Shown here: positions 39,008-50,952 of the stretch, piece after piece | Layout of the letters: each line of letters opens with the position of its first letter | How positions within the stretch are numbered: position 1 is the first letter of the stretch | Assembly: GCA_041288095.1 (NCBI GenBank) | Contig: JBGGMJ010000012.1 | Span: 1 to 54,628 of the forward strand | Length of the DNA stretch: 54,628 bases | Direction: 5' to 3' | Source of the DNA: Myxococcota bacterium | GTDB lineage: Bacteria > Myxococcota > XYA12-FULL-58-9 > JALHOP01 | Made by a program: the position numbers and the translations under genes | The notes under the pieces: generated by a model | Databases searched by the model: none | The model's input: the letters and a program-made list of their open reading frames with translations, nothing else | Told to the model about the DNA's origin: nothing

Positions 39008-39550
39008 TTACTCGAGTTGAAGGGGAGTGCTGTTGACGTAGTCGTTCGCCTGCGACGCCACGTGACAGGCGTTACAGTCGGGGGAGTTACTGGTCACGGA
39101 TATGCAACGGTAGGTGCGGCCCGAGGGCGGCACGGTGCCTCGCCACTCCGTCACCGGCACGCCACCTTCATCCGTCTGCAGCTCGAACCACTCCCAGCCG
39201 AGCGCGCCCTTGCCGTTGAAGCCTCCGCCTCGCTTCACCATGGCGTAGATCTCCCATTCGGTGGACGGGCGCTCGTCCTCGAAGACCTTCACCAGCTTGG
39301 TGCCGATTGGGAACTCGATGGCGCCCGCGGGCGGCATCTCGCTCACGTAGAGCCGGCGTCGGCCGATGGGCAGGCTGTCGATGACGGTGTCGCCGAGATC
39401 GAACGACTGCCACTCCTGGAAGCCGTAAAAATCGCGGTCGAGGGCGATGAACGTCCGCCCCTGGCTCACGGCGTCCAGAGCCTGCTCGTTGTCGAGACAG
39501 CCGACGCCGACGAGCAAGCTCAGCGGGAGGATGAGCCATGGACCGCGCAT
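39008..39550 (-). CDS. Mono-haem lipoprotein, cytochrome P460-like fold
   Basis: GVGC lipobox; FPIGTKLVK, AMVKR, GWEWF, C-terminal CNACH. Confidence 0.7.
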   Translation of the reverse strand: MRGPWLILPLSLLVGVGCLDNEQALDAVSQGRTFIALDRDFYGFQEWQSFDLGDTVIDSLPIGRRRLYVSEMPPAGAIEFPIGTKLVKVFEDERPSTEWEIYAMVKRGGGFNGKGALGWEWFELQTDEGGVPVTEWRGTVPPSGRTYRCISVTSNSPDCNACHVASQANDYVNSTPLQLE

Positions 39551-40557
39551 CAATCGAGGACCGTGATGCCGAGGATGGTCGCGCCTTGGCGCATCGCCGC
39601 CACCAGGGACTCGGGGTTTTCGACGTCGCTCTCGGCCGAGAGGAACACGAAGAGGCGGCCATAGGCGGTGCTGTCGTCCGGCGCGTCCGGGTTCCAGTCG
39701 CCGGGGACCTCCGGCAAGGACTCACCCACGAGGTCGTCGTAGTACTCTTGGATGGCGTCGAAACGCGCGACGATGGTCGCGTCGACGTCGGCGCCACCGG
39801 GCTCGCCCCGCAGCCAATCGCGAAAGGCCGCGTAGATCTCGCGCCCGCCCGCGAGGTTCGCGCGCATGTCCGCTAAAGTGTGTTGCGCGTAGCGCGACTC
39901 GTCTTCGCCGGTCGCGGCGAGATTCACTTTCTCGAATTGTTCGGCCATCGAGCCGAGGACGCCGCGGTAGGCGTCCGCCGCATCGAGGGCGAGCGGCGCG
40001 AATGCCGAATGCATGGTGTCGAAGTCATCGACGAGCTTCTGGGCTAGCTCCGCTTTGAAGGACTGAGCGGCGGGCTCGCTGTTCGGGTAGGACGGCAGGT
40101 GGTAGCCGGGGAGCGTCGACTCGAAGTCGGTGACCCACTGCGGGTGGGCGTCGGCCCAGAGGATGCGCTCGATCGCGTGCATGCCGATGACGATCTGGTC
40201 GTCGAACAGGTCGGTGTCGGCTCCCTCCTCGAGAAACATCTCGTAGCGAGCGTCGGTCGAGTAGTCGAGGTCCTCGAACAAGACCGCAATCGCGCCCTCG
40301 ACGTGCTCGTAGGCAATTCTCGCCTGCTTCCAGGCAGCGCGCATGTCTTCGACAGCGGTCGCATGTGACGCGTGCGTCCAGCTCGTCGCGGGTGTGCTCG
40401 CTTGCAGCGACTCCGCGGCCGCTCGCAAGGCCACGAGCTCACGGGTCACATAGTCCTTCACGTCCAGCGTCGCACCGTCGCGAGCAGTGATGTCGGTGGG
40501 GTCGTCGCCGCAAGCGGCGATCGCGAAAAAGAGAACGATGAGGGGATATGTCTTCAT
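39550..40557 (-). CDS. Imelysin / EfeO-EfeM (peptidase M75-like) iron-binding lipoprotein
   Basis: IAAC lipobox; ARIAYEHVE, DARYE, GMHAIERILW (HxxE), GEDESRYA. Confidence 0.88.
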   Translation of the reverse strand: MKTYPLIVLFFAIAACGDDPTDITARDGATLDVKDYVTRELVALRAAAESLQASTPATSWTHASHATAVEDMRAAWKQARIAYEHVEGAIAVLFEDLDYSTDARYEMFLEEGADTDLFDDQIVIGMHAIERILWADAHPQWVTDFESTLPGYHLPSYPNSEPAAQSFKAELAQKLVDDFDTMHSAFAPLALDAADAYRGVLGSMAEQFEKVNLAATGEDESRYAQHTLADMRANLAGGREIYAAFRDWLRGEPGGADVDATIVARFDAIQEYYDDLVGESLPEVPGDWNPDAPDDSTAYGRLFVFLSAESDVENPESLVAAMRQGATILGITVLD

Positions 40558-40564
40558 GGGTAAC

Positions 40565-41797
40565 TCAGAGTCGTTGCACGAACGTGACGAGCTCGCCGCG
40601 TTCCGTGTCAGTTAGTCTTTCATAGCGGTCAACACTGTCGTTCGCCTCGGAGCCGCCTCCCCGGTGCGCTTCGATCGCGTCGGCGACGGTCTTGGCGCGA
40701 CCGTCGTGCATGAAACCGCGCAGGTGACGCAGGCCGATGAGCGGCGCGGTGCGCCACTCGCGGCCATCGGCGCTCTCTTCCGCGATGCCGTCGGCCAAGC
40801 CGTCGCCCATGTCGTGCAGGAGAAGATCCGAGTAAATCGAGGCGTCGACTCCCGCCAGCTGCGGAATCGGATAGTCGGCGCGTGTCGGCATGGAGGGCGT
40901 ATGGCATGCGCTACAGCGGACGCTTTCGAAAAGGCCGGCGCCCGGGCCGGCGAGATCGCCGCGAACAGGCATGTCGAGCAGCCGCACATAGTCGGCGACC
41001 AGCTCGACTTGCTCGAGCGTCACGTCGACACCCGGCTTCTCATCGTCTTCGAGGGCGTCTGGATTGGGTAGCTCGAAAGGCCGCAGGGGTGAGGTGAGCC
41101 CCATGTCGCCTTGGTAGGCGTCGGCGACGAAGTCATCGATGGTGGGGGAGCGCGCTTTGGTGCCGAAGCGACCGATGAGGCCTTGGTCGCCGGGAGCGTA
41201 GTCGTGTGTCAGCGATAGCGGATTAGCTCGTGACCGCCAGGCTACGTAGTTGACGCGCCCGCTGATGCCGTCATCGCGCGTCGTTTGGCTCGCGGCGCCA
41301 GCTTCGATGGCGCCGGCATCGACTGCCTCGATGAAGCCGCGACCAAAAACGGCAAGGCCAAGCCGCGTGGTGACCTTCACGTTCGACGACCCAGGTGGGG
41401 TGATGCCCACGGTCGCGCCGGCGGCGAGCTGGGTGCGTCCCGTATGGCCATATGGCAGAGCCGACTGGTCTTCTTGCGGCGTGATTCCGTCCGCCAGCAC
41501 GAGAACGAACTTCTGCACGGCGCCGGGACCCTTGCTGTCGTTCTCGTGGCAGGCGCTGCACCGGGCACGCACGAACAGCGGACCGAGCCCCTGCGTTTCG
41601 CGCGCCGACTCGTCGAATTCGGCGTCACCAGCCCGGAAGCGCGAGAGCTGCTCGGACGAGAGGGCGGCAAGAGGAAGGTCGGTGGGGTCGTCGCCGCGGA
41701 CCTCGAGATCGGCGAGACGCGCGGCGGCGTCATCTCCCGCGTCCCCGCAGGCGGCCATCAACCCCATCGCACTAATGCAAATAAAATTGCGAATCAT
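40565..41797 (-). CDS. Di-haem oxidoreductase (DHOR) family lipoprotein (paralog 2)
   Basis: MAAC lipobox, GLGP, CSACH x2, DGISGR, DLLLHDMG, WRTAPL, HDGRA. Confidence 0.92.
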   Translation of the reverse strand: MIRNFICISAMGLMAACGDAGDDAAARLADLEVRGDDPTDLPLAALSSEQLSRFRAGDAEFDESARETQGLGPLFVRARCSACHENDSKGPGAVQKFVLVLADGITPQEDQSALPYGHTGRTQLAAGATVGITPPGSSNVKVTTRLGLAVFGRGFIEAVDAGAIEAGAASQTTRDDGISGRVNYVAWRSRANPLSLTHDYAPGDQGLIGRFGTKARSPTIDDFVADAYQGDMGLTSPLRPFELPNPDALEDDEKPGVDVTLEQVELVADYVRLLDMPVRGDLAGPGAGLFESVRCSACHTPSMPTRADYPIPQLAGVDASIYSDLLLHDMGDGLADGIAEESADGREWRTAPLIGLRHLRGFMHDGRAKTVADAIEAHRGGGSEANDSVDRYERLTDTERGELVTFVQRL

Positions 41798-41805
41798 TCT
41801 CAATT
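41785..41805. promoter_or_regulatory. Fur-box-like inverted repeat
   Basis: AATTGCGAAT-C-ATTCTCAATT (minus strand TGAGAATGATTCGCA, 7-1-7); AT-rich patch overlapping the proposed DHOR start. Confidence 0.75.
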
Positions 41806-41841
41806 GCAAGGAGTACTGCGCGCGGGCCGCGGTCGTCAAGC

Positions 41842-42348
41842 CTAACCGGCCGTGTCGGCTGGCGGGCGCCCGAACCACATTGCAAAGATTGGATAAATGG
41901 TCAGCACCAGCCAAAGGCCCGCCATCAGCAGCGCTGACGGGAAGACCAGCACGCTAGCTCCCGCGCCGGCGAAGCGGACGAGCACAGGCGCTAGCAGATG
42001 GAGGAGGGTGGCAACCGTGGCGAGCCCCAGCGTCCAGGCCTTGGTGCGCAGCCGCAGCTCGCACATCAGGTAGATGTGACCGACGACGAGCAAGACGATG
42101 GGCACCACGAAGACGTGAAAGTGAAACGTCTCCATCACCTGGCGCGGCGGTTTTTCGAAGACCATGGACGCGGGGTCGCCGAGGTAATACCTCGCGGCGC
42201 TGCCCGGCAGCACGGAAAGCCCGTCGTCGAGGTAGAGCCAGACGGAGGTGGCGACGCCGATGGCCACGAAGGCGCAGAATCCGCTATAGAGGATGCGCGC
42301 CTCGAGTGACAGGCGTTCGATGCTCATGGGTCGGGCAAAAGGGCGCAC
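41842..42348 (-). CDS. Four-TM membrane protein with His-rich motif
   Basis: METFHFHVF, GH and LH in TM segments; RBS GGAGG. Confidence 0.75.
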   Translation of the reverse strand: MRPFARPMSIERLSLEARILYSGFCAFVAIGVATSVWLYLDDGLSVLPGSAARYYLGDPASMVFEKPPRQVMETFHFHVFVVPIVLLVVGHIYLMCELRLRTKAWTLGLATVATLLHLLAPVLVRFAGAGASVLVFPSALLMAGLWLVLTIYPIFAMWFGRPPADTAG

Positions 42349-42349
42349 G

Positions 42350-42946
42350 TTAACCTCCGCCGCCGGGCGCGGCCTTCGCGGCGTGAGTCACGATGCCGAC
42401 CAGCGCGGCCGCTCGCTTTACCGCGACCGAAACCGCCACTGACGAGATCGTCGCGCCACTGATGGCGACGATGTCGTCACCGGAGCGAATGTCGTCTTGC
42501 ACGGTCTTCCCCACGAACTGATCGCGAAAGCGGACCGCCGCGACTTCGCCGCCATAACGTTCGCGATAAACCATGATCTCCGTCCGCTCGATGCGGCCGT
42601 CGGGCGCGACTTTGGTCGCCAGGGTGATCGGGAGATGCTGCCCGAGCTGCTCGTCGATGACCGCATAGCCGTCGACGACCTCACCGGTGCGCGCGACGAA
42701 GACGGGGTAGGTCTTCTTGGGAGGGAGATAGCCCAGGAGTCGCTTGAGCTCGTCACCATGTTTGGTGGTCTCGAGGGTCACGTAGGTCACGTGTGTCGAG
42801 CTCGGGAAGAACGCCTTCAGTACGCTTTCATTGCTGAAGTACACGCCTTGGGCGCGGGCCGCCCCGACGCCCAGGCAGAGCGTACCCAGCACGAAGGCAA
42901 CGCTCGTCGCAAAGCGACGGGTGCCGCGATTGAAGACGCGCGCCAT
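42350..42946 (-). CDS. Extracytosolic FMN-binding domain protein
   Basis: Signal peptide; YRERYGGEV, FRDQFVGK, ISGATISS flavinylation motif. Confidence 0.88.
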   Translation of the reverse strand: MARVFNRGTRRFATSVAFVLGTLCLGVGAARAQGVYFSNESVLKAFFPSSTHVTYVTLETTKHGDELKRLLGYLPPKKTYPVFVARTGEVVDGYAVIDEQLGQHLPITLATKVAPDGRIERTEIMVYRERYGGEVAAVRFRDQFVGKTVQDDIRSGDDIVAISGATISSVAVSVAVKRAAALVGIVTHAAKAAPGGGG

Positions 42947-43056
42947 TCGTCGCGGGCAGCTAGCAACCTCTGACGTTTTCCGCAACATCTGCTCGGCCCG
43001 TCCGACAACCCGAAAGCAATATTGGGCGGGCTTTTACCGCACCGAGGAGACCCATC

Positions 43057-43497
43057 ATGGACGGCATCGAAGCGGGAAAAGCGGGACAGGCAAAGCCGGT
43101 TACAGTCGAGGCACCGCCGGCTAGCGCGACGGCACAGCCGGTTGAAGTCGGTCCAAAGAGCTGGACCACCGCGGGGCGCCCCGTGGCCGACGTGAGCGAC
43201 AGCGTTCGCGGATCGGCGAGCCCCGAGGCGATCGCCACCGGCGCCAAGCCGAACGATCTCCGCGAGAAGGCGCGCACGGCAGCAGGCATGACTGTGCTCG
43301 CCATCTGTGGATTCCTCCCCGGTCTCGTCTTGGCGGCGGTCCAAATGGGCTCGGAGCTCGTGAGCAGGCCCTTCGGTCGTGAGGGCTGGCGGCCCGAGGG
43401 GTCCGCGACGATCCCGATCATCAATGCCATGGAAATCACGATGAAACCGGCGATGCGTCTCGTCAGCCGGCTCGGCCTCGCCCGCGATCCGGGCTGA
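43057..43497 (+). CDS. Hypothetical protein (Pro/Ala-rich N-terminus, 1-2 TM)
   Basis: RBS GAGGAG; 146 aa. Confidence 0.55.
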   Translation: MDGIEAGKAGQAKPVTVEAPPASATAQPVEVGPKSWTTAGRPVADVSDSVRGSASPEAIATGAKPNDLREKARTAAGMTVLAICGFLPGLVLAAVQMGSELVSRPFGREGWRPEGSATIPIINAMEITMKPAMRLVSRLGLARDPG

Positions 43498-43575
43498 GCG
43501 CCCCGACAACCGGATGCGCCGACCGAGGGGGACGGCACAATCTTGCCAGGGTCCTCTGCGGGGACACTTTCGTCC

Positions 43576-43611
43576 TTGCACACCCCGAGCGCGTCTAACA
43601 TAACGGATGTT
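43576..43611 (+). promoter_or_regulatory. Putative sigma70 promoter and palindromic operator of the encapsulin operon
   Basis: TTGCAC-N17-CATAAC overlapped by AACAT-AACGG-ATGTT dyad (43597-43611). Confidence 0.4.
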
Positions 43612-43649
43612 CATCTAGTGGCCCTCGCCCCCTTGAAGAGGACTCCGAA

Positions 43650-44558
43650 GTGACTGACGCCAAGGACCGAATGCTGAACGAGAAAGCCGCTCGTCAGCTA
43701 GCCAACACCACGAAGACGCCACCGCAGTGGCGCGGCGCGACGCCTCGCTGGGTCGTCCAGTTGCTACCCTGGACGCCGGTCGAGGCCGGCACTTACAGAG
43801 TCAACCAGGCGATCGACGATGACTTCGACGCGAAGTGCAGCCCGCAACAAGGTGAAGCCCTGCCGGTCGCCTTCTCCGACTATGATCAGCAGCCGCGCGA
43901 GTACACGCTCACCTCGGTGACGACTACGATAGCGGTCGACACGCGCGTCTCCGATCTGTTCCGCAGCCCGATGGATCAGGTGAAGGAGCAACTCTCGCTC
44001 ACCGTCGAGAAGCTCAAAGAGAAGCAAGAGAACGAGGTCATCAACAACAAGAGCTACGGCCTGCTCAACAACGTCGATCCCGACATGCGCTTCAAGCCGC
44101 GCAAGGGTCCGCCGACACCGGACGACCTCGACGAGCTCATCTCACGGGTGTGGAAGGAGCCGAGCTTCTTCTTGGCGCATCCGAAGCTGATCGCGGCTTT
44201 CGGGCGTGAATGCACGCGGCGTGGTGTGCCACCACCGACGTTAACCTTGTTCGGCTCGCCGTTTCTCACCTGGCGCGGGTTGCCTCTCATCCCGAGCGAC
44301 AAGATGCCGGTGAAGGGCAACAAGAGCGACCTCCTGTTGCTGCGTACCGGCGAGCGCAAGCGTGGCGTCGTCGGTCTGTTCCAGCCGGGCCTGCCGGGCG
44401 AAGTGAGCCCCAGCTTGTCGGTGCGCCTGATGGGCATCAACCAGGCGGGCGCGGCGTCGTATCTCTTGTCGCTCTACTGCTCGGTCGCGGTGCTCACACA
44501 CGACGCGGTGGGTGTGCTCGAAGGCGTGACCGTTGACCACTACCATGAGTACGCCTGA
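43650..44558 (+). CDS. Family 2A encapsulin shell protein (SrpI-like)
   Basis: AARQLANTTKTPPQ..TPRW..LLPW.PVEAGTYRVN, DY...PREY, GPPTPDDLDEL, FGRECTRRGVPP, TWRG.PL.PSDK. Confidence 0.95.
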   Translation: MTDAKDRMLNEKAARQLANTTKTPPQWRGATPRWVVQLLPWTPVEAGTYRVNQAIDDDFDAKCSPQQGEALPVAFSDYDQQPREYTLTSVTTTIAVDTRVSDLFRSPMDQVKEQLSLTVEKLKEKQENEVINNKSYGLLNNVDPDMRFKPRKGPPTPDDLDELISRVWKEPSFFLAHPKLIAAFGRECTRRGVPPPTLTLFGSPFLTWRGLPLIPSDKMPVKGNKSDLLLLRTGERKRGVVGLFQPGLPGEVSPSLSVRLMGINQAGAASYLLSLYCSVAVLTHDAVGVLEGVTVDHYHEYA

Positions 44559-46236
44559 CGATTTGGTGCTGCCGGCCGAAGCGGTTCTGGCGCAGCGGCA
44601 GGTGCCGCGCGCGCAAAGCCCGCTCGAGGCGCCGGCGCACTATGTGCCGACGCCGGGCGTTAGCCCCGCCGTCTTGAAGCACCCCGGCATGCCGACCCTG
44701 CCCGAGGCGGATCCCGTGTCGCTGACGCTGGTCGTACAGCGCCTGGCGAACGAGCTGTACGCGGGCGGTCAGCTGCCCGCGCCTTCCGGAGGAGGCGCAC
44801 CGGCGTCCCCGTTTGGGGGCCCGCTCGACTTTACGGCCTTCCGGGGCGCTCAATTCCCGGCGTTCTCGCTGCCGCTGCTGAGCGACGCCGTGGTGCCTCC
44901 GGCCGTGCCGACCGCCATTTCGCCTCCGGCTGCCGCGGCGCCGTCCGCTATTGCGGCGCCGTCTTGGCCTGGCGCGCAACTCGACCCGGCCGTCGTCGTG
45001 GTCGATCGCACACCGCGACTGTTCGACGCGCACGCCCTCAAGCGCGAGTTCCCCATTCTCCAAGAGCGCGTCAACGGACGAGAGCTGGTGTGGCTCGACA
45101 ACGCGGCGACGACGCAGAAGCCGCGCGCGGTCATCGACCGGCTGTCGCGTTTCTACGAGAAGGAAAACTCCAACATCCACCGCGCGGCGCACACGCTGGC
45201 GGCGCGATCGACGGATGCGTACGAGGGCGCGCGCGAGTCGGCGCGACGCTTCATCAACGCTCCCGAGACGCGCGAGATAGTCTTCGTGCGCGGCACCACC
45301 GAGGGCTTGAACCTCATCGCTCAATCGTGGGGCCGGCGGCACGTCAAGGAAGGTGATGAGATTCTCATCACCTGGCTCGAGCACCACGCGAACATCGTCC
45401 CTTGGCAACAGCTCGCGGCGGAGAAGGGTGCAAAGCTCCGTGTCGCGCCTGTCGACGATCGCGGACAGATCATTCTCGAGGAGTACGAGAAGCTGCTCTC
45501 GCCGCGCACTCGCCTCGTGTCGTTCACGCAAGTGTCGAATGCGCTCGGTACCGTCACTCCCGCGAAGGAAATGACGGAGCTCGCGCACCGTCACGGAGCA
45601 CTGGTCGTGGTCGACGGTGCGCAGTCGGTGTCGCACTTACCGACCGACGTGCAGGCGTTGGGCTGCGACTTCTTCGTCTTCTCGGGACACAAGGTGTTCG
45701 CGCCCACCGGCATCGGTGTGGTGTGGGGTCGCGCCGAGCTGCTCGACGCCATGCCGCCGTGGCAAGGCGGCGGCAACATGATCAAGGACGTGACCTTCGA
45801 GCGCACCCAGTTCCATGCCGCGCCCGCGCGCTTCGAGGCCGGTACCGGCTCCATTGGGGACGCGGCTGCCCTCGGCGCGGCGCTCGATTGGCTCGCCCGG
45901 CTCGGGGTCAGCACGGTCGCGGCTTACGAGCACGAGCTGCTCGACTACGCCACGGCGTGTCTCTCCGATGTACCAGGGCTCACGCTCTACGGCACCGCGC
46001 CGGAGAAGGCCGGCGTGCTCTCGTTCGTGCTCGAAGGGCAGGAGACCACGCAAATCGGCTCGATGCTCGACAAAGAGGGCATCGCCGTGCGCTCAGGACA
46101 TCACTGTGCTCAACCCATCTTGCGGCGCTTCGGCCTCGAAGCCACCGTGCGGGCATCGCTTGCGCCCTACAACACGCGTGACGACATCGATGCCCTGGTG
46201 GCGGCGCTCAGGCGCATTCAAGAAGGCAGGCGATGA
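44545..46236 (+). CDS. Encapsulin cargo cysteine desulfurase (SufS-type) with N-terminal cargo-loading region
   Basis: Pro/Ala-rich N-terminus with QRLANELY; WLDNAATTQKP, SGHK (PLP Lys), RSGHHCAQP (catalytic Cys). Confidence 0.95.
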   Translation: MSTPDDLVLPAEAVLAQRQVPRAQSPLEAPAHYVPTPGVSPAVLKHPGMPTLPEADPVSLTLVVQRLANELYAGGQLPAPSGGGAPASPFGGPLDFTAFRGAQFPAFSLPLLSDAVVPPAVPTAISPPAAAAPSAIAAPSWPGAQLDPAVVVVDRTPRLFDAHALKREFPILQERVNGRELVWLDNAATTQKPRAVIDRLSRFYEKENSNIHRAAHTLAARSTDAYEGARESARRFINAPETREIVFVRGTTEGLNLIAQSWGRRHVKEGDEILITWLEHHANIVPWQQLAAEKGAKLRVAPVDDRGQIILEEYEKLLSPRTRLVSFTQVSNALGTVTPAKEMTELAHRHGALVVVDGAQSVSHLPTDVQALGCDFFVFSGHKVFAPTGIGVVWGRAELLDAMPPWQGGGNMIKDVTFERTQFHAAPARFEAGTGSIGDAAALGAALDWLARLGVSTVAAYEHELLDYATACLSDVPGLTLYGTAPEKAGVLSFVLEGQETTQIGSMLDKEGIAVRSGHHCAQPILRRFGLEATVRASLAPYNTRDDIDALVAALRRIQEGRR

Positions 46237-47153
46237 AAGTCGTCGACGTTCGCGAAGCTCGAGGCTTGCTTGCGAGCGGTGACCTCGACCTCGTGGACGT
46301 GCGCGAAGGTCATGAGTGGGAAACCGGTCACCTGCCTAACGCCCGTCACGTGCCACTCGGCACGGTGAAAGCCGATCCAAAACGGGCTCTGCCGCGAGAT
46401 GGTGTTCTGCTGGTTTGCGCCCGTGGTGGCCGCAGCGCGACGGCGGCTGCTTTAGCGGACGACCTCGGCTACCAGACGGTGTATAGCATCGACGGTGGTA
46501 CGATGGCGTGGCAAGAAGCCGGCCTGCCCATCGAAGTACCTCCGATTTCGGAGCGCGTGCCGGTCGCCGCGCACGAGGCGCTGTCGACCGACCTCGACGT
46601 GCCGGAGCTCGACCCGGTCATTGGCGCGAACCTGCGTGAGCTGCGCACCCAGCGGGGACTCAGTCTCGACGCCGTGGCTCGCATGTCCGGGCTGTCGCGG
46701 ACCCTGCTCGGCCAAGTCGAGCTCGGCACCAACCCGCCGAGCCTCGGCGTCGTCTGGCGACTCGCGAAGGCTTTCGACGTTCCGTTCGCGACCTTGCTTT
46801 CGGCGCCGACGGTGTCCGCGACAGCGGTCTTGCGCAAGGCCAAGGCGAAGGTCCTCATGAGCGCCGATGGTCGGTTCTCCTCGCGGGCGCTGTTCCCGTT
46901 CGGTGAGCCAACCAAGGTGGAGTTCTACGAGCTGTGGCTCGCGGGGCATGCGCGCGACGATGCGGAGCCGCACGCCCGAGGCACCAAGGAAAACCTGGTC
47001 GTCACGCGCGGCCAGGTCGTCATCGAGGTCGCCGGCCAAAGGCACGAGCTCGGCGAGGGCGATGCCCTCGTCTTCCCCGCTGACGTGCCGCACGCCTACG
47101 TCAACCCTGCTTCCGCCGAGTGCTGGATGCACCTGGTGATGACTTACCTGTAG
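46233..47153 (+). CDS. Rhodanese-XRE HTH-cupin fusion transcriptional regulator
   Basis: DVRE..EW..GHLP and CARGGRS (rhodanese); IGANLRELR..RGLSL..QVELG.NP (XRE); PH..GTKE...FPADVPHAY (cupin). Confidence 0.88.
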   Translation: MKVVDVREARGLLASGDLDLVDVREGHEWETGHLPNARHVPLGTVKADPKRALPRDGVLLVCARGGRSATAAALADDLGYQTVYSIDGGTMAWQEAGLPIEVPPISERVPVAAHEALSTDLDVPELDPVIGANLRELRTQRGLSLDAVARMSGLSRTLLGQVELGTNPPSLGVVWRLAKAFDVPFATLLSAPTVSATAVLRKAKAKVLMSADGRFSSRALFPFGEPTKVEFYELWLAGHARDDAEPHARGTKENLVVTRGQVVIEVAGQRHELGEGDALVFPADVPHAYVNPASAECWMHLVMTYL

Positions 47154-47161
47154 AGGCAACG

Positions 47162-48208
47162 ATGACGATTCGCGACGGCTTCATTTCCACCATCGGCAAT
47201 ACTCCGCTCATCAAGCTGCGAGCGGTCTCGCAGGCGACCGGCTGCGACATCTACGGCAAGGCCGAGTTCTTGAATCCCGGCGGCTCGGTGAAGGATCGCG
47301 CCGCGCTCGCCATCGTGCTCGACGCCGAGAAGCGGGGCGTGCTGCGACCGGGAGGTGTCATCGTCGAGGGCACCGCCGGCAACACCGGCATTGGTTTGTC
47401 ACTCGTTGGTAATGCGCGCGGTTATCGCACCGTCATCGTCATCCCCAACACGCAAAGCCAAGAGAAGAAGGACTCGATCCGCGGTGCCGGCGCGACGCTC
47501 CATGAAGTGCCGGCGGTTCCCTACAAGAACCCGAACAACTACGTCCACGTGGCGGAGCGCATCGCCGAGCAGCTCGCTAAAACGGAGGCCAACGGCGCCA
47601 TCTGGGCACGGCAGTTCGACAACGTCGCCAACAGACAAGGCCACTACGAGACGACAGGGCAGGAGATCTGGAACCAGCTCGGCGGCAAGATCGACGGCTT
47701 CGTCTCCGCCATCGGCACCGGCGGCACGATCGCCGGCGTCGCCGCGGCCCTGCGCGAGAAGAAGCGATCCGTGAAGATTGCGCTCGCCGATCCGCCCGGC
47801 GCGGCGCTGCACACCTACTACACGACGGGTGAGCTCAAGGCAGAAGGGACGAGCATCACCGAGGGCATCGGCCAGGGGCGCATCACCAAGAACATCGAAG
47901 GCTTCACCCCAGACTTCACGTGGCAGATCGCCGACGCCGAGACCATGAACATGGTCTTCGACCTCGTCGAGAAGGAGGGCCTGGTGCTCGGCAGCTCGTC
48001 CGGCATCAACGTCGCCGGCGCGGTGCGACTCGCCAAGGAGCTGGGCCCGGGTCACACCATCGTCACCATCTTGTGTGATGCCGGCAGCCGCTACGCCTCG
48101 AGGTTGTTCAACCGCGACTTCCTCGTTGCCAAGGGACTGCCGGTGGCGCCGTGGCTCAGCCTTCAGCCGACACTGCCCGAAGGAGCACTCGTACCGGTTC
48201 CAGCCTAG
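47162..48208 (+). CDS. cysK: Cysteine synthase (PLP-dependent O-acetylserine sulfhydrylase family)
   Basis: IGNTPL, KAEFLNPGGSVKDR, GTAGNTG, GTGGT, TEGIG. Confidence 0.9.
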   Translation: MTIRDGFISTIGNTPLIKLRAVSQATGCDIYGKAEFLNPGGSVKDRAALAIVLDAEKRGVLRPGGVIVEGTAGNTGIGLSLVGNARGYRTVIVIPNTQSQEKKDSIRGAGATLHEVPAVPYKNPNNYVHVAERIAEQLAKTEANGAIWARQFDNVANRQGHYETTGQEIWNQLGGKIDGFVSAIGTGGTIAGVAAALREKKRSVKIALADPPGAALHTYYTTGELKAEGTSITEGIGQGRITKNIEGFTPDFTWQIADAETMNMVFDLVEKEGLVLGSSSGINVAGAVRLAKELGPGHTIVTILCDAGSRYASRLFNRDFLVAKGLPVAPWLSLQPTLPEGALVPVPA

Positions 48209-48240
48209 GCAGCGGTTGGCGGACCCGACAGTGTCAGACT

Positions 48241-50952
48241 ATGTCTATGCGCATGGACGGAAGACATGCGCTTCTCCCCCTGCTGGTTTTGGGCGTGGTC
48301 GGCTGCGAGGTCGCGCTCGACATCGACGCACCCACTCGCGTCAGCTGCACCGCGATAGACGACTGCCCCGCGGGCTGGGGTTGCGTAGAAGAGACCGGGT
48401 ATTGCGCCATGCGCGGCGCGGTCTGTACCGAAGACCGCAATGGCGGTCTGCACGCGAGCGCAAACGGTAACGCCTGCGCCCTGAGCGCCGAGGAGGTCGG
48501 CGTATGCGTCAACGGTGAGTGTGCTCGGTCACGTTGCGGCGATGGCGTCGTCGACGTCGCGAGGAACGAGCTTTGTGACGACCCGAACGGCAATAGCGAC
48601 ACACTCCCCGACGCGTGTCGCACCGATTGCACGCCCGCGCGCTGCGGCGACGGCGTCACCGACAGCACCGATGAATGCGACGACGCCAACGACGACGACG
48701 ACGACACCTGCCTCAGCACGTGCAATTGGAACTTCTGCGGGGCGAGCGGCGTGCTCTGCGTCGAAGGACAAGTTTGCGCGAGCGGTAGTTGCCGCGACGC
48801 CTGCACCTTCGACTCGGAATGCGACGCCGACCGCCTGTGCGAGGGCGTTTGTGTGCCCAAGATCCCGCCCATCATCTCGTTCGCCGCGGGCTCGATGTCG
48901 TTCTTCGTCGGGGCTCAGCCCGTCGACATCGTTCCCCTGGTCGATGCAGGATCGCAGGCACCGAGCGCGGTCGTGAGTTGGCGCTGGGTCGTCGCACCCG
49001 AGGGGTTCGATACGACGGTGCCACCCCCCGGCCCGGTGCTCGGTTTTTCACCCGACGTGGTCGGTAGCTACGCCCTCGAAGCCACCGCGACACACCGGGG
49101 CGGCAGTACCGCCAACATGCTGATCCTGCAGGTGAGGGCGGCAAGCACGGTTGCCTTGATGAACCCAGGTGGAGGCGACAGCATCGTCGAGTTCTTCACC
49201 GATGGCAGCGCGCAGGTGCTCTTGCCCGATTTCTTCGATGTGCAGGCGCATGCTGGACTGCAGCTGCTTCCCGGGCACAACGCCATCTTTGCAGGTGCCG
49301 TGAGCTCGCTGACCGCTCCTGACCTAACCCTCGCCGCGGATTCGCCCTCCGGTCTCGAGAGTGAGGGCGACGCGGTGAGCTGCGCCGGCGCCTTCAAGGT
49401 CTGGGCCATCGCCGACGACGGAACCGGCGGCTGCTGCCCCGCGGGCTCTTCCGGCACGCTCGCTACCTTCTCATTGGCAAGCTACGGCTGCTGCAAGCAA
49501 GGCTTCGAGTATTTCCCAAGCGGCAGCTGCGAGGTTCGGCGCGAGCGCCCGGCAACGGCGTTCATCGCGACGACCGCCAACACCGGCCAGGGGTTTGGCG
49601 GCGTGCCCGCGCTTGCGGGACCAGCCGGTCACTGCGACTGGACGGACCTCCCGCCGGCCACCATCGATCCCGACAACGTCGATGTAAAACTGTGCCGGTA
49701 CGAAATTCGAGCGCTCTCGAGCGCGCGCGATGGCTCGAACGTCGCCTTCGTGTTGTCGCGCCAATTCGTACCTGACCCCTCCCACCTGCCCGGCAGAGCG
49801 GGCCTGGCCGTGATCGTCGATGCCCCAAGCCATCTCAACAGCGTCGGGGTCGAGGCGGGGCTGCCGGATGCAAGCGTCGTTCTCCTGTCGACGGAGGTCG
49901 AAGTTGCGGACCTCCAGTACCCGCCGTTGAGCTACCTACGCCTGGCCCACGATCCGAGTGGCACGCGCTTGGCGGTGCTCGCCGGCCCCATGGATGTTCT
50001 CGCGAGCGCAGGCTCGCTCATCCAGCCGAGCGCTATCGCGGACTACGGGGTAACCATCTACGATCCCGTGAGCCACGCTACCGTCGCCGCGAGCAGCGAC
50101 ATCACCATGCGCGCGAGCTGGCGCGCCGTGCTGCTCCTGTTGCCCAACAATCGCATCGTCCTCAGTCCCGACGGACTCTCGGTGCAGGTCAGCACCACCG
50201 ACGTCACGACGCCCGCGATGACCGCCCTCTGGGCGACCCCGGCGCGCGCTGACTACGTACCCATCGACGCGAATTACCATGCGGCGCTCGCGTGCGCGCC
50301 GCTTTGCGAAGACTACAGCGCTTCGCCGGCGCCGGACCTCAACGCCTGCGCTGATGCTTGCTGCACCTGTCTAGCGGAGAGCGCGATGACGGATCCCGCG
50401 GTCCGCTGTCACGCACTCTCGGGCACGGGAGATAGCGGCGTGTCCATTTCGGTCTACGATGGGGTCAGCCGCAACGCAGCCGGCACTCTGCTCTCGGCGT
50501 CCAAGACGACGACGCTGATTCCGTTCGATCGTTGTGATGACATCTTTCTCTTCGAGAAGGCACCCGACCTCGAGCGCGTCCACGAGCTCGTGACCCATGT
50601 CGTGGCGACGCAGAGCGAGACGCACTACGCAATCGCCGCGCTCACCGGCGGTGATCCGACGCACATCACTCGCATCCCGAGCACGGGCTTCTTGGCTGAT
50701 GACTCGCAGCTGTCGTTTACCTTGCGCCTGCAAGCCAATCCCGCGCCGCCGCGTTTCGTCGAGTTCTGGATTCTGAACCGAGACGGGTCGCGCCCTCGCC
50801 AGCTCCTCCCGGACGGTGCGAGCTTCTTCGAGCAAACCAACGAGCCGCCTGAAAATGGTTGCGCCCAAACCCCCCTCGGTTCGCTGCCTTTCCTCGTCAT
50901 GTTCGCCGGGGCGATGCTTTTGCGCGGACGGCGGCCTTTACCGGCGCCGTAG
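48241..50952 (+). CDS. Cys-rich surface lipoprotein with Myxococcus-type Cys repeats and C-terminal MYXO-CTERM-like signal
   Basis: VVGC lipobox; CGDG..E.CDD repeats; GCAQTPLGSLPFLVMFAGAMLLRGRR. Confidence 0.8.
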   Translation: MSMRMDGRHALLPLLVLGVVGCEVALDIDAPTRVSCTAIDDCPAGWGCVEETGYCAMRGAVCTEDRNGGLHASANGNACALSAEEVGVCVNGECARSRCGDGVVDVARNELCDDPNGNSDTLPDACRTDCTPARCGDGVTDSTDECDDANDDDDDTCLSTCNWNFCGASGVLCVEGQVCASGSCRDACTFDSECDADRLCEGVCVPKIPPIISFAAGSMSFFVGAQPVDIVPLVDAGSQAPSAVVSWRWVVAPEGFDTTVPPPGPVLGFSPDVVGSYALEATATHRGGSTANMLILQVRAASTVALMNPGGGDSIVEFFTDGSAQVLLPDFFDVQAHAGLQLLPGHNAIFAGAVSSLTAPDLTLAADSPSGLESEGDAVSCAGAFKVWAIADDGTGGCCPAGSSGTLATFSLASYGCCKQGFEYFPSGSCEVRRERPATAFIATTANTGQGFGGVPALAGPAGHCDWTDLPPATIDPDNVDVKLCRYEIRALSSARDGSNVAFVLSRQFVPDPSHLPGRAGLAVIVDAPSHLNSVGVEAGLPDASVVLLSTEVEVADLQYPPLSYLRLAHDPSGTRLAVLAGPMDVLASAGSLIQPSAIADYGVTIYDPVSHATVAASSDITMRASWRAVLLLLPNNRIVLSPDGLSVQVSTTDVTTPAMTALWATPARADYVPIDANYHAALACAPLCEDYSASPAPDLNACADACCTCLAESAMTDPAVRCHALSGTGDSGVSISVYDGVSRNAAGTLLSASKTTTLIPFDRCDDIFLFEKAPDLERVHELVTHVVATQSETHYAIAALTGGDPTHITRIPSTGFLADDSQLSFTLRLQANPAPPRFVEFWILNRDGSRPRQLLPDGASFFEQTNEPPENGCAQTPLGSLPFLVMFAGAMLLRGRRPLPAP

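Follow-up and report, generated by a model that had tools for sequence, protein, structure and literature searches.

A rhodanese joined to an XRE-cupin protein at the end of a family 2A encapsulin unit in Myxococcota: a candidate local regulator

The last gene of a conserved encapsulin unit in a 54,628-nucleotide stretch of Myxococcota DNA (contig JBGGMJ010000012.1, assembly GCA_041288095.1; hereafter the window) encodes a protein of the XRE-cupin local-regulator type joined to an encapsulin-operon rhodanese, a combination that is new to the literature searched. The gene probably serves as a local regulator of the encapsulin operon. The rhodanese may be its sensory input, through sulfuration of Cys62; judged from the sequence, this is an even call. 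A one-component, autoregulated local regulator whose input is the sulfuration state of the rhodanese Cys62, possibly relayed to Cys297, is a plausible proposal that falls just short of even. A specific relay from Cys62 to Cys297 would be a tentative addition.

The reading frame at 46233-47153 (+) is uninterrupted for 306 codons. In Pfam, the protein matched Rhodanese (PF00581) at residues 7-96 (E 1e-16, 61.7 bits against a cut-off of 22.2), HTH_3, a helix-turn-helix (HTH) family, at residues 134-187 (E 4.2e-13, 49.6 bits, profile positions 1-54 of 55), and Cupin_2 at residues 244-298 (E 1.3e-11, 44.5 bits). A preliminary description of this stretch had placed a rhodanese with an intact loop cysteine, a linker, and an XRE-cupin regulator in one frame; the open reading frame (ORF) and the Pfam matches agree with it. 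The rhodanese loop reads C62-A-R-G-G-R-S68. Bordo and Bork are said to have described, in 2002, active rhodaneses as those in which the catalytic cysteine heads a six-residue active-site loop, and C62-A-R-G-G-R followed by S68 fits this rule. The order of the other two domains, an N-terminal HTH_3 and a C-terminal Cupin_2, is that of XRE-cupin proteins, from whose two-domain format of about 180-230 aa the protein departs through its added rhodanese and its length of 306 aa. The matches to the NCBIfam equivalogs GlpE (52.3 against a cut-off of 102) and MoeB (71.7 against 449) stayed below the cut-offs and indicate likeness at the domain level only; the match to the PuuR equivalog NF007408 also stayed below its cut-off (43.6 bits against 211). 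No CsoR-like or ArsR fold family was present among the Pfam and NCBIfam matches; the fold is XRE plus cupin.

The fusion recurs. All of the best 120 homologues listed from a collection of 5.8 billion proteins contain the three Pfam domains, at 53-100% identity and lengths of 288-337 aa; one source names them [quoted passage not shown]. A genome scan with the fusion as query, using one genome per species, returned 416 relatives, of which the 80 best loci were retained (L numbers below denote loci). These all come from metagenome-assembled genomes (MAGs) of Myxococcota or from unclassified "proteobacteria". In tblastn searches with the window proteins, adjacent rhodanese and XRE-cupin matches were found in 50 of the 80 loci, and no rhodanese match in the other 30. 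The fused loci span 45-81% identity. For 49 of the 50, the rhodanese and XRE-cupin parts are read in a single stop-free frame with the C-x4-R-S loop. The exception is L037 (8445-9277), where the two parts occupy different frames and the rhodanese match ends at residue 59; the cause could be a frameshift, decay of the copy, or an error in sequencing.

We aligned 40 fusion homologues (alignment A1). Residues C62, G65, R67, and S68 of the rhodanese are invariant (40/40), as are H247, E253, H287, and N291 of the cupin (40/40). The homologues begin at the same methionine and end at the same place, and the length of the linker between the domains differs widely. Locus L037 is the one point in favor of two neighbors, a rhodanese and an XRE-cupin gene, having been wrongly joined by assembly or annotation. 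The same continuous frame in 49 of 50 independent genome loci and in all 120 listed proteins, as well as the shared start methionine and end point, speak against such an artifact, which we consider next to impossible. The possibility that the fusion is unique to this assembly, on which the preliminary description would have foundered, is thereby removed.

A profile search of 1.84 billion representatives (50% clustering) gave two full-length clusters plus fragments among its best 150 matches; the remaining matches were XRE-cupin only or multi-rhodanese proteins, and remoter fusions may rank below 150. The ESM Atlas holds one three-domain cluster with 131 members, which is commonest in Myxococcota. 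The fusion family is narrow and, as far as seen, confined to one myxobacterial clade. Within it, a subclade has an extra cysteine in the linker motif sCGLPEPGLD directly before the HTH (for example, P0069, P0088, P0089, P0096, P0109, and P0117; also P0122 and P0124); the window's protein does not have this cysteine. P0124, with 201 aa, was considered as a natural split form; it begins in the linker and was judged to be a truncated ORF.

In the window, the ATG of the fusion gene and the TGA of the cysteine desulfurase (CD) gene overlap as ATGA, the coupling that had been reported earlier. The encapsulin shell gene (enc) scored 474.7 bits against NF041162 (cut-off 380) and matched the Pfam SrpI-like family with an E-value of 1.1e-95. 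The desulfurase scored 811.6 bits against NF041166 (cut-off 800), with Aminotran_5 over residues 186-555; an N-terminal extension of about 160 aa, which matched no family here, precedes its SufS-like domain. By the ATGA overlap and the conserved gene order, the family 2A shell, the cargo desulfurase, and the fusion are encoded in a single transcription unit.

For 41 of the 50 fusions, a same-strand desulfurase gene ends 0-702 nt upstream, mostly with a gap of 0-124 nt. In L042 and L069 the desulfurase C-terminus is found at the contig edge, which brings the total with a directly upstream desulfurase to 43 of 50; in L018 and L054 the Enc-CD pair lies 6.3-7.3 kb upstream of the fusion. Of the 41 loci, 34 have the shell gene ahead of the desulfurase, and the other seven contigs end before it. 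The flanks vary between loci. Given these counts and the varied flanks, the conserved unit is Enc-CD-fusion, with the putative regulator last. The tie to family 2A shells, a check named in the preliminary description, thus holds: the desulfurase is directly upstream in 43 of the 50 fused loci and 6-7 kb upstream in two more. The other five fused loci show no Enc-CD; two of these, L013 and L022, have less than 170 nt of upstream sequence, too little to judge. The cysteine synthase gene (cysK) starts 8 nt past the fusion stop in the window and is found downstream in none of the 50 fused loci; it is probably the last operon gene in this organism only. In L001 and L011 cysK is located upstream on the other strand, and in L012 a Cys/Met pyridoxal phosphate (PLP) enzyme is divergent from enc.

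Of the 30 loci without a rhodanese match, 27 have an XRE-cupin gene that genuinely stands alone (53-59% identity to residues 125-305 of the fusion); in the other three (L031, L036, and L041; 3/30) the sequence begins at the contig end, and these are termed contig-cut. The stand-alone proteins have about 205-230 aa and form a separate clade. In a maximum-likelihood tree of the XRE-cupin part (81 rows: 27 stand-alone, 51 fused sequences from the 50 loci and the window, and three contig-cut), a single branch with 100/100 support parts the stand-alone sequences from the fused and contig-cut ones. The fused clade has a single origin. Both forms are present in several MAGs (L029/L064, L045/L055, L053/L072, and L054/L058); therefore, they are paralogues with different jobs. 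None of the 27 stand-alone genes is near an encapsulin or a desulfurase, and their varied neighbors (MiaB-like, MshEN response regulators, M16 peptidases, and others) give no clue to a ligand. In two Archangium loci, a radical-SAM gene with UPF0004, Radical_SAM, and TRAM domains is convergent with the stand-alone gene (L057:10607-12067 (-) and L075:11290-12759 (-)); this pairing is absent from the other paralogue loci examined. The same three domains occur in methylthiotransferases of the MiaB/RimO type, which are sulfur-inserting enzymes.

A comparison of alignment columns between the 51 fused and the 27 stand-alone sequences revealed 11 positions at which a residue nearly fixed in the fused clade is rare in the stand-alone one. 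The non-conservative ones are D127, R214, H239, R241, R/K252, C297, and W298; R214 is just N-terminal of the cupin barrel, and H239, R241, K/R252, C297, and W298 are within it. Position 297 is cysteine in 51 of 51 fused and three of three contig-cut sequences (39 of 40 in A1), versus none of the 27 stand-alone sequences, all of which have alanine, threonine, or serine; it is valine in the XRE-cupin regulator of PDB entry 1Y9Q and alanine in homologues from Azospirillum and Methylosinus. H247, E253, and H287 are conserved in the fused and stand-alone proteins and in 1Y9Q, and are thus a family trait. Likewise, R156, G160, Q161, and E163 of the HTH are near-invariant in both forms.

An AlphaFold2 (AF2) model built with alignment A1 had a mean predicted local distance difference test (pLDDT) of 85 and a predicted template modeling score (pTM) of 0.53, with both globular parts confident. 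The block means for the rhodanese were 89-96, and residues 106-117 were below 50. Because this low-confidence stretch is located between confident parts, the fusion is, as modeled, a tethered two-module protein. The best structural matches to the rhodanese in Foldseek were 3TP9 (44% identity; root-mean-square deviation 1.4-1.6 Å over 101 residues) and YgaP; by sequence, it also matches YgaP (E 1e-18), GlpE, and chain 5VE3 of BpPRF. One crystal form of E. coli YgaP is described as S-sulfhydrated. For the XRE-cupin half, 1Y9Q is the closest solved relative (E 2e-31 over residues 132-306) and the top Foldseek match in the PDB, and its H/E/H positions align with those of the fusion. The HTH-cupin iron enzymes HppE (E 7e-9), HEPD, and MPnS follow directly, at 13-16% identity.

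These matches raise the possibility that the protein is a non-haem metal enzyme of the HTH-cupin kind (compare HppE, HEPD, and MPnS), which would process a persulfide from the fused rhodanese in the manner of persulfide dioxygenase-rhodanese fusions. The invariant H247, E253, and H287 fit a 2-His-1-Glu site, the clade-specific arginines could hold a sulfur oxyanion, and two of the best rhodanese matches, 3TP9 and BpPRF 5VE3, are rhodaneses fused to other enzyme folds. However, the HTH is a strong, full-length HTH_3 match whose conserved positions are common to stand-alone XRE-cupin regulators. The H/E/H residues were not gained by the fused clade, since the stand-alone paralogues and 1Y9Q conserve them equally well, and the sequence identity to HppE is just 13-15%. 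Persulfide dioxygenases use a metallo-beta-lactamase fold and not a cupin. This catalytic alternative is a minor rival and very unlikely.

The two halves of the protein are encoded separately in other phyla, as seen in nine family 2A loci outside of the Myxococcota that were taken from a plasmid collection. A stand-alone rhodanese is found in seven of the nine; in Synechococcus pANL it directly follows the desulfurase, as the rhodanese domain does in the window, and is 37% identical over 76 aa to the domain in the fusion. XRE-type genes are located beside enc in four of the nine, and a cupin-only homologue in one more. In Azospirillum, a divergently oriented 199-aa XRE-cupin protein is encoded beside enc (L081:4749-5348 (-); 35% identity over 176 aa, E 4e-35); it has neither the H/E/H positions nor the cysteine at position 297. 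Variovorax encodes an 89-aa HTH_3 protein (E 4e-13) between the serine acetyltransferase gene (SAT) and enc, and Burkholderia and Paraburkholderia have HTH-only tblastn matches in the same interval. The cupin-only homologue is that of Methylosinus, with 98 aa and 44% identity, just upstream of enc (L082:5482-5778 (+)); an Rrf2 gene follows the desulfurase there (L082:9433-9876 (+)). The Aliarcobacter, Acinetobacter, Ralstonia, and Synechococcus loci gave no XRE match. Since rhodanese and XRE genes stand separately in these phyla, the myxobacterial gene looks like a fusion of two recurrent operon partners, and their having fused suggests that they work together.

Short XRE-type HTH genes are present in three Burkholderiales operons (L083:6637-6906 (+), L085:6617-6796 (+), and L088:6525-6707 (+)). 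The encapsulin papers describe Burkholderiales-type operons as rhodanese, SAT, Enc, and CD only (PMC10836720, PMC8346489; here and below, papers are cited by their PubMed Central identifiers and for the portions retrieved).

Four observations lead us to the local-regulator role: membership in the XRE-cupin family, the fixed place in a three-gene unit amid unrelated surroundings, the XRE genes that independently adjoin family 2A operons in other phyla, and the known behavior of XRE-cupin proteins. In Pseudomonas, these are local, specialized repressors of adjacent genes, and they bind palindromes as dimers (PMC7901475); DNA binding and local repression by the fusion protein would follow this family pattern. 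Its HTH would bind DNA near the promoter upstream of enc, probably as a cupin-held dimer, and the regulator would control the encapsulin-desulfurase operon, here also including cysK. Since the fusion is kept, its catalytic loop is intact, and the cupin has acquired a new cysteine with basic neighbors, the rhodanese may be read as the input. On its flexible linker, it would take sulfane sulfur onto Cys62, possibly from thiosulfate, from low-molecular-weight persulfides or polysulfide, or from sulfur that the compartment releases. The loaded or unloaded state would then alter the activity of the regulator, the likeliest route being Cys297 and the Arg/His cluster of the cupin, with either persulfide transfer or a C62-Sn-C297 bridge as the relay chemistry. 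An invariant Cys62 and a clade-wide C297 would fit a two-cysteine switch; C62 and C297 are also the two conserved cysteines looked for in thiol-persulfide sensors. The response could run in either direction: sulfane sulfur could relieve repression, as in the CstR/SqrR pattern, or repression could set in at sulfur plenty, which would fit starvation induction elsewhere. The operon of A. baumannii is induced about 10-fold under sulfur limitation (PMC10836720).

The main rival to a regulator with rhodanese input places two jobs on one chain with no signal between them. The rhodanese would be a sulfur acceptor or mobilizer and the XRE-cupin part a local repressor of the usual kind, with a small molecule (for example, O-acetylserine, cysteine, sulfite, or thiosulfate) as the signal for its cupin, and the fusion would tie the two in amount or place. 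The rhodanese is indeed common as a stand-alone gene, in about 50% of operons (PMC10836720) and in the seven plasmid-collection loci, and in other lineages XRE or XRE-cupin genes stand separately beside enc. The cupin domain is described as the signal-sensing part of the family (PMC7901475; PMC10965056), the Arg/His cluster would suit an anionic small ligand, and the linker is long and disordered. However, the cupin cysteine is exclusive to proteins with a fused rhodanese, all 51 of which retain it. That 49 of 50 loci, at 45-81% identity, have retained the fusion in frame speaks for selection on the joined state, and a DNA-bound repressor would be an odd vehicle for a sulfur carrier that shuttles to acceptors. 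We consider the separation of the two jobs unlikely, though it deserves serious weight.

Several observations weigh against a regulator of the encapsulin operon with rhodanese input. The preliminary description held that sulfur flux from the encapsulated desulfurase is read directly; the desulfurase is placed inside the shell (PMC10836720), which makes direct transfer from enzyme to sensor doubtful, and that claim is unsupported here. The donor is more likely to be thiosulfate, a free persulfide, or sulfur that leaves the shell. One branch (100/100) separates the two forms; with this one split in the tree, C297 and the rhodanese came together in a single event and not through repeated co-evolution. 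The weight of C297 lies in its retention throughout the fused clade since that event. The clade-specific residues of the cupin could just define a small-molecule ligand unrelated to the rhodanese. Conservation is also lower in the rhodanese half (42-68% identity) than in the XRE-cupin half (53-77%), and the rhodanese is only weakly similar to the operon rhodaneses of proteobacteria (28-40% identity, E 1e-4 to 4e-7). With a pTM of 0.53, the model gives no confident domain arrangement and does not fix the placing of C62, C297, and the H/E/H residues relative to one another. A predicted complex between the rhodanese (residues 1-105) and the XRE-cupin part (125-306) scored 0.00 in two runs, which had no controls and weigh neither for nor against docking. 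Three fused loci, L025 and L026 (with 10 kb of upstream sequence) and L027 (1.6 kb), have no Enc-CD upstream.

The fusions of L025 (9941-10912) and L026 are located between an S15 peptidase or Rieske/FMN-reductase gene and an APH-type kinase gene. In their cupin signature, tyrosine replaces H239.

The search for an operator also counts against the regulator reading. The 250-350 nt upstream of enc were searched for exact and one-mismatch dyads (half-sites of 5-7 nt, spacers of 0-14) and for shared k-mers. Across 32 loci, no dyad exceeded Markov-shuffled controls and no shared k-mer occurred beyond chance; an operator was not found. The candidate palindrome given in Table 1 is unique in the window and had no match in 100 shuffles, but it is weakly echoed in two loci only. 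Related 15-mers are located upstream of enc in L029 (three mismatches, at -89) and L014 (four mismatches, at -51), where shuffles give 0.06 and 0.32 matches of the respective type per 31 loci; the palindrome is not conserved in the other 29 of these 31 loci. Two weak inverted repeats were found in 42950-43700.

Read by eye, a -10-like element TAnGGT (or TAnnnT), followed by a G+C-rich stretch, is present about 35-45 nt before the enc start in L001, L003, L004, L007, L011, L012, L029, L030, L033, L034, L045, L053, and L054; it looks like the operon promoter. A promoter scan of 42900-48400 gave no promoter-like sites, and a terminator scan of the same interval gave four terminator-like sites versus 3.5 expected.

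Table 1. Features of the encapsulin unit and its candidate regulator, in window coordinates.
Feature	Position	Strand	Basis or remark
Palindrome AACAT-N5-ATGTT, candidate operator (weak lead)	43597..43611		39 nt upstream of enc start codon
Family 2A encapsulin shell protein, 302 aa, first gene of unit	43650..44558	+	NF041162, Pfam SrpI-like
Cargo cysteine desulfurase (CD), family 2A	44533..46236	+	NF041166, Aminotran_5
Rhodanese-linker-XRE(HTH_3)-cupin fusion protein, 306 aa	46233..47153	+	ORF, Pfam, homologue alignment, AF2
Rhodanese domain, aa 1-105, catalytic loop C62-ARGGR-S68 (C62 codon 46416-46418)	46233..46547	+	Pfam
Pro/Ala-rich linker of variable length, aa 106-125	46548..46607	+	pLDDT, alignment A1
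XRE-type helix-turn-helix, aa 134-187	46632..46793	+	HTH_3 match
Cupin barrel, aa 228-305, with H247/E253/H287 (C297 codon 47121-47123)	46914..47147	+	Cupin_2 match
Cysteine synthase A-like PLP enzyme	47162..48208	+	NF007989, 545.3 bits against cut-off 387

The window has a G+C content of 66%, and its nearest relatives are Myxococcota. An Rfam scan of the whole window found no family at gathering score. A 660-nt gap (42989-43649) separates enc from a divergent FMN_bind gene. Inside it, an ORF of 146 aa at 43057-43497 (+), with a G+C content at third codon positions (GC3) of 0.79 and no Pfam match, may be spurious or a small gene. The FMN_bind gene belongs to a minus-strand cluster upstream of the operon (39550-42988), together with imelysin (Peptidase_M75), a di-haem oxidoreductase (DHOR), and a 168-aa ORF without a Pfam match; the imelysin and DHOR families suggest an iron-uptake-type set. 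Directly after cysK, a Cys- and Asp-rich ORF of 933 aa without a Pfam family (48151-50952 (+)) would, with the first GTG as its start, overlap the end of cysK by about 58 nt; it probably starts further on.

Compartments of the desulfurase-encapsulin kind are widespread and store elemental sulfur; their regulation and the role of their rhodanese are described as unknown (PMC10836720). Rhodanese and serine acetyltransferase are common accessory genes of their operons, and the rhodanese is proposed to accept or remobilize sulfur by an unknown mechanism (PMC10836720, PMC8346489). In Data S1 of PMC10836720, operons of "Myxococcales" and "Deltaproteobacteria" are entered as type 3 with an "Associated Rhodanese" accession, which may be that of the fusion. 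The term "XRE" is absent from the retrieved main texts of PMC10836720 and PMC8346489, and "cupin" is linked to family 2A in neither. Within the library of papers searched, there was no characterized rhodanese-XRE-cupin protein and no relevant link of encapsulins to XRE regulators or to the fusion protein. The earlier statement that no characterized example is known therefore stands for the searched literature only, and rhodanese-like domains in ChrB and ArsR regulators are already in print (PMC3817168). In the Advenella study PMC5373536, the rhodanese, XRE, and cupin are separate proteins, and the paper is irrelevant here.

The fusion physically ties the operon rhodanese to a DNA-binding regulator and so provides a concrete hypothesis for both regulation and the role of the rhodanese. 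If the relay is true, the XRE-cupin scaffold would join a short list of bacterial persulfide sensors, and the separate rhodanese and XRE genes of Burkholderia-type operons might cooperate likewise. In its widest form, the rhodanese of family 2A operons would generally be a sulfane-sulfur gauge that reports to an XRE-type regulator, fused in Myxococcota as a new class of persulfide sensor in which the rhodanese cysteine hands sulfur to a cysteine beside the cupin His/Glu/His, so that the filling and emptying of the compartment would be coupled to its own synthesis; such a generalization is speculative and doubtful. If the relay is false, the gene would still be the first candidate for a dedicated regulator of a family 2A encapsulin operon, and would show that catalogue entries labeled "rhodanese" may conceal a transcription factor.

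Among known systems, the XRE-cupin factors (PauR, PsdR, and ErfA of Pseudomonas; PuuR and SutR/YdcN of E. coli; 1Y9Q of Vibrio cholerae) have the same HTH_3 and Cupin_2 module. Like these local repressors, the fusion is encoded beside the genes that it presumably controls. Unlike them, it adds an N-terminal rhodanese, a clade-specific cupin cysteine, and an Arg/His cluster, and its gene is located at the 3' end of the operon and is not divergent from it. SutR is called a sulfur-utilization regulator in a title cited by PMC4797297. The stand-alone operon rhodaneses (J517_0525 of A. baumannii; the gene after cyd in pANL of S. elongatus) have a catalytic cysteine and are encoded in the same operon, as in the fusion, whose rhodanese is, in contrast, covalently joined to a DNA-binding regulator. 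The A. baumannii protein has a size of 18 kDa (supplement of PMC10836720).

HppE, HEPD, and MPnS resemble the fusion in their HTH-plus-cupin fold and 2-His-1-Glu pattern, with 13-15% identity for HppE; the canonical XRE motif of the fusion is counted as a difference from HppE and its relatives. The two-cysteine repressors CstR and SqrR/BigR/YgaV have the same proposed logic, in which sulfane sulfur on cysteine alters the repression of sulfur-handling genes. Their DNA-binding folds (CsoR-like and ArsR) are unrelated to the XRE domain of the fusion and, unlike in the fusion, sensor and rhodanese are separate proteins. In the ygaVP gene pair, the sensor YgaV is encoded with the rhodanese YgaP. 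Rhodanese-type enzymes influence SqrR signaling (PMC9995734). The regulators of the ChrB and ArsR types with rhodanese-like domains have, as in the fusion, a rhodanese-type module attached to a transcription regulator; they differ from it in DNA-binding family, domain order, and chromate or arsenic context, and have neither a cupin nor an associated encapsulin.

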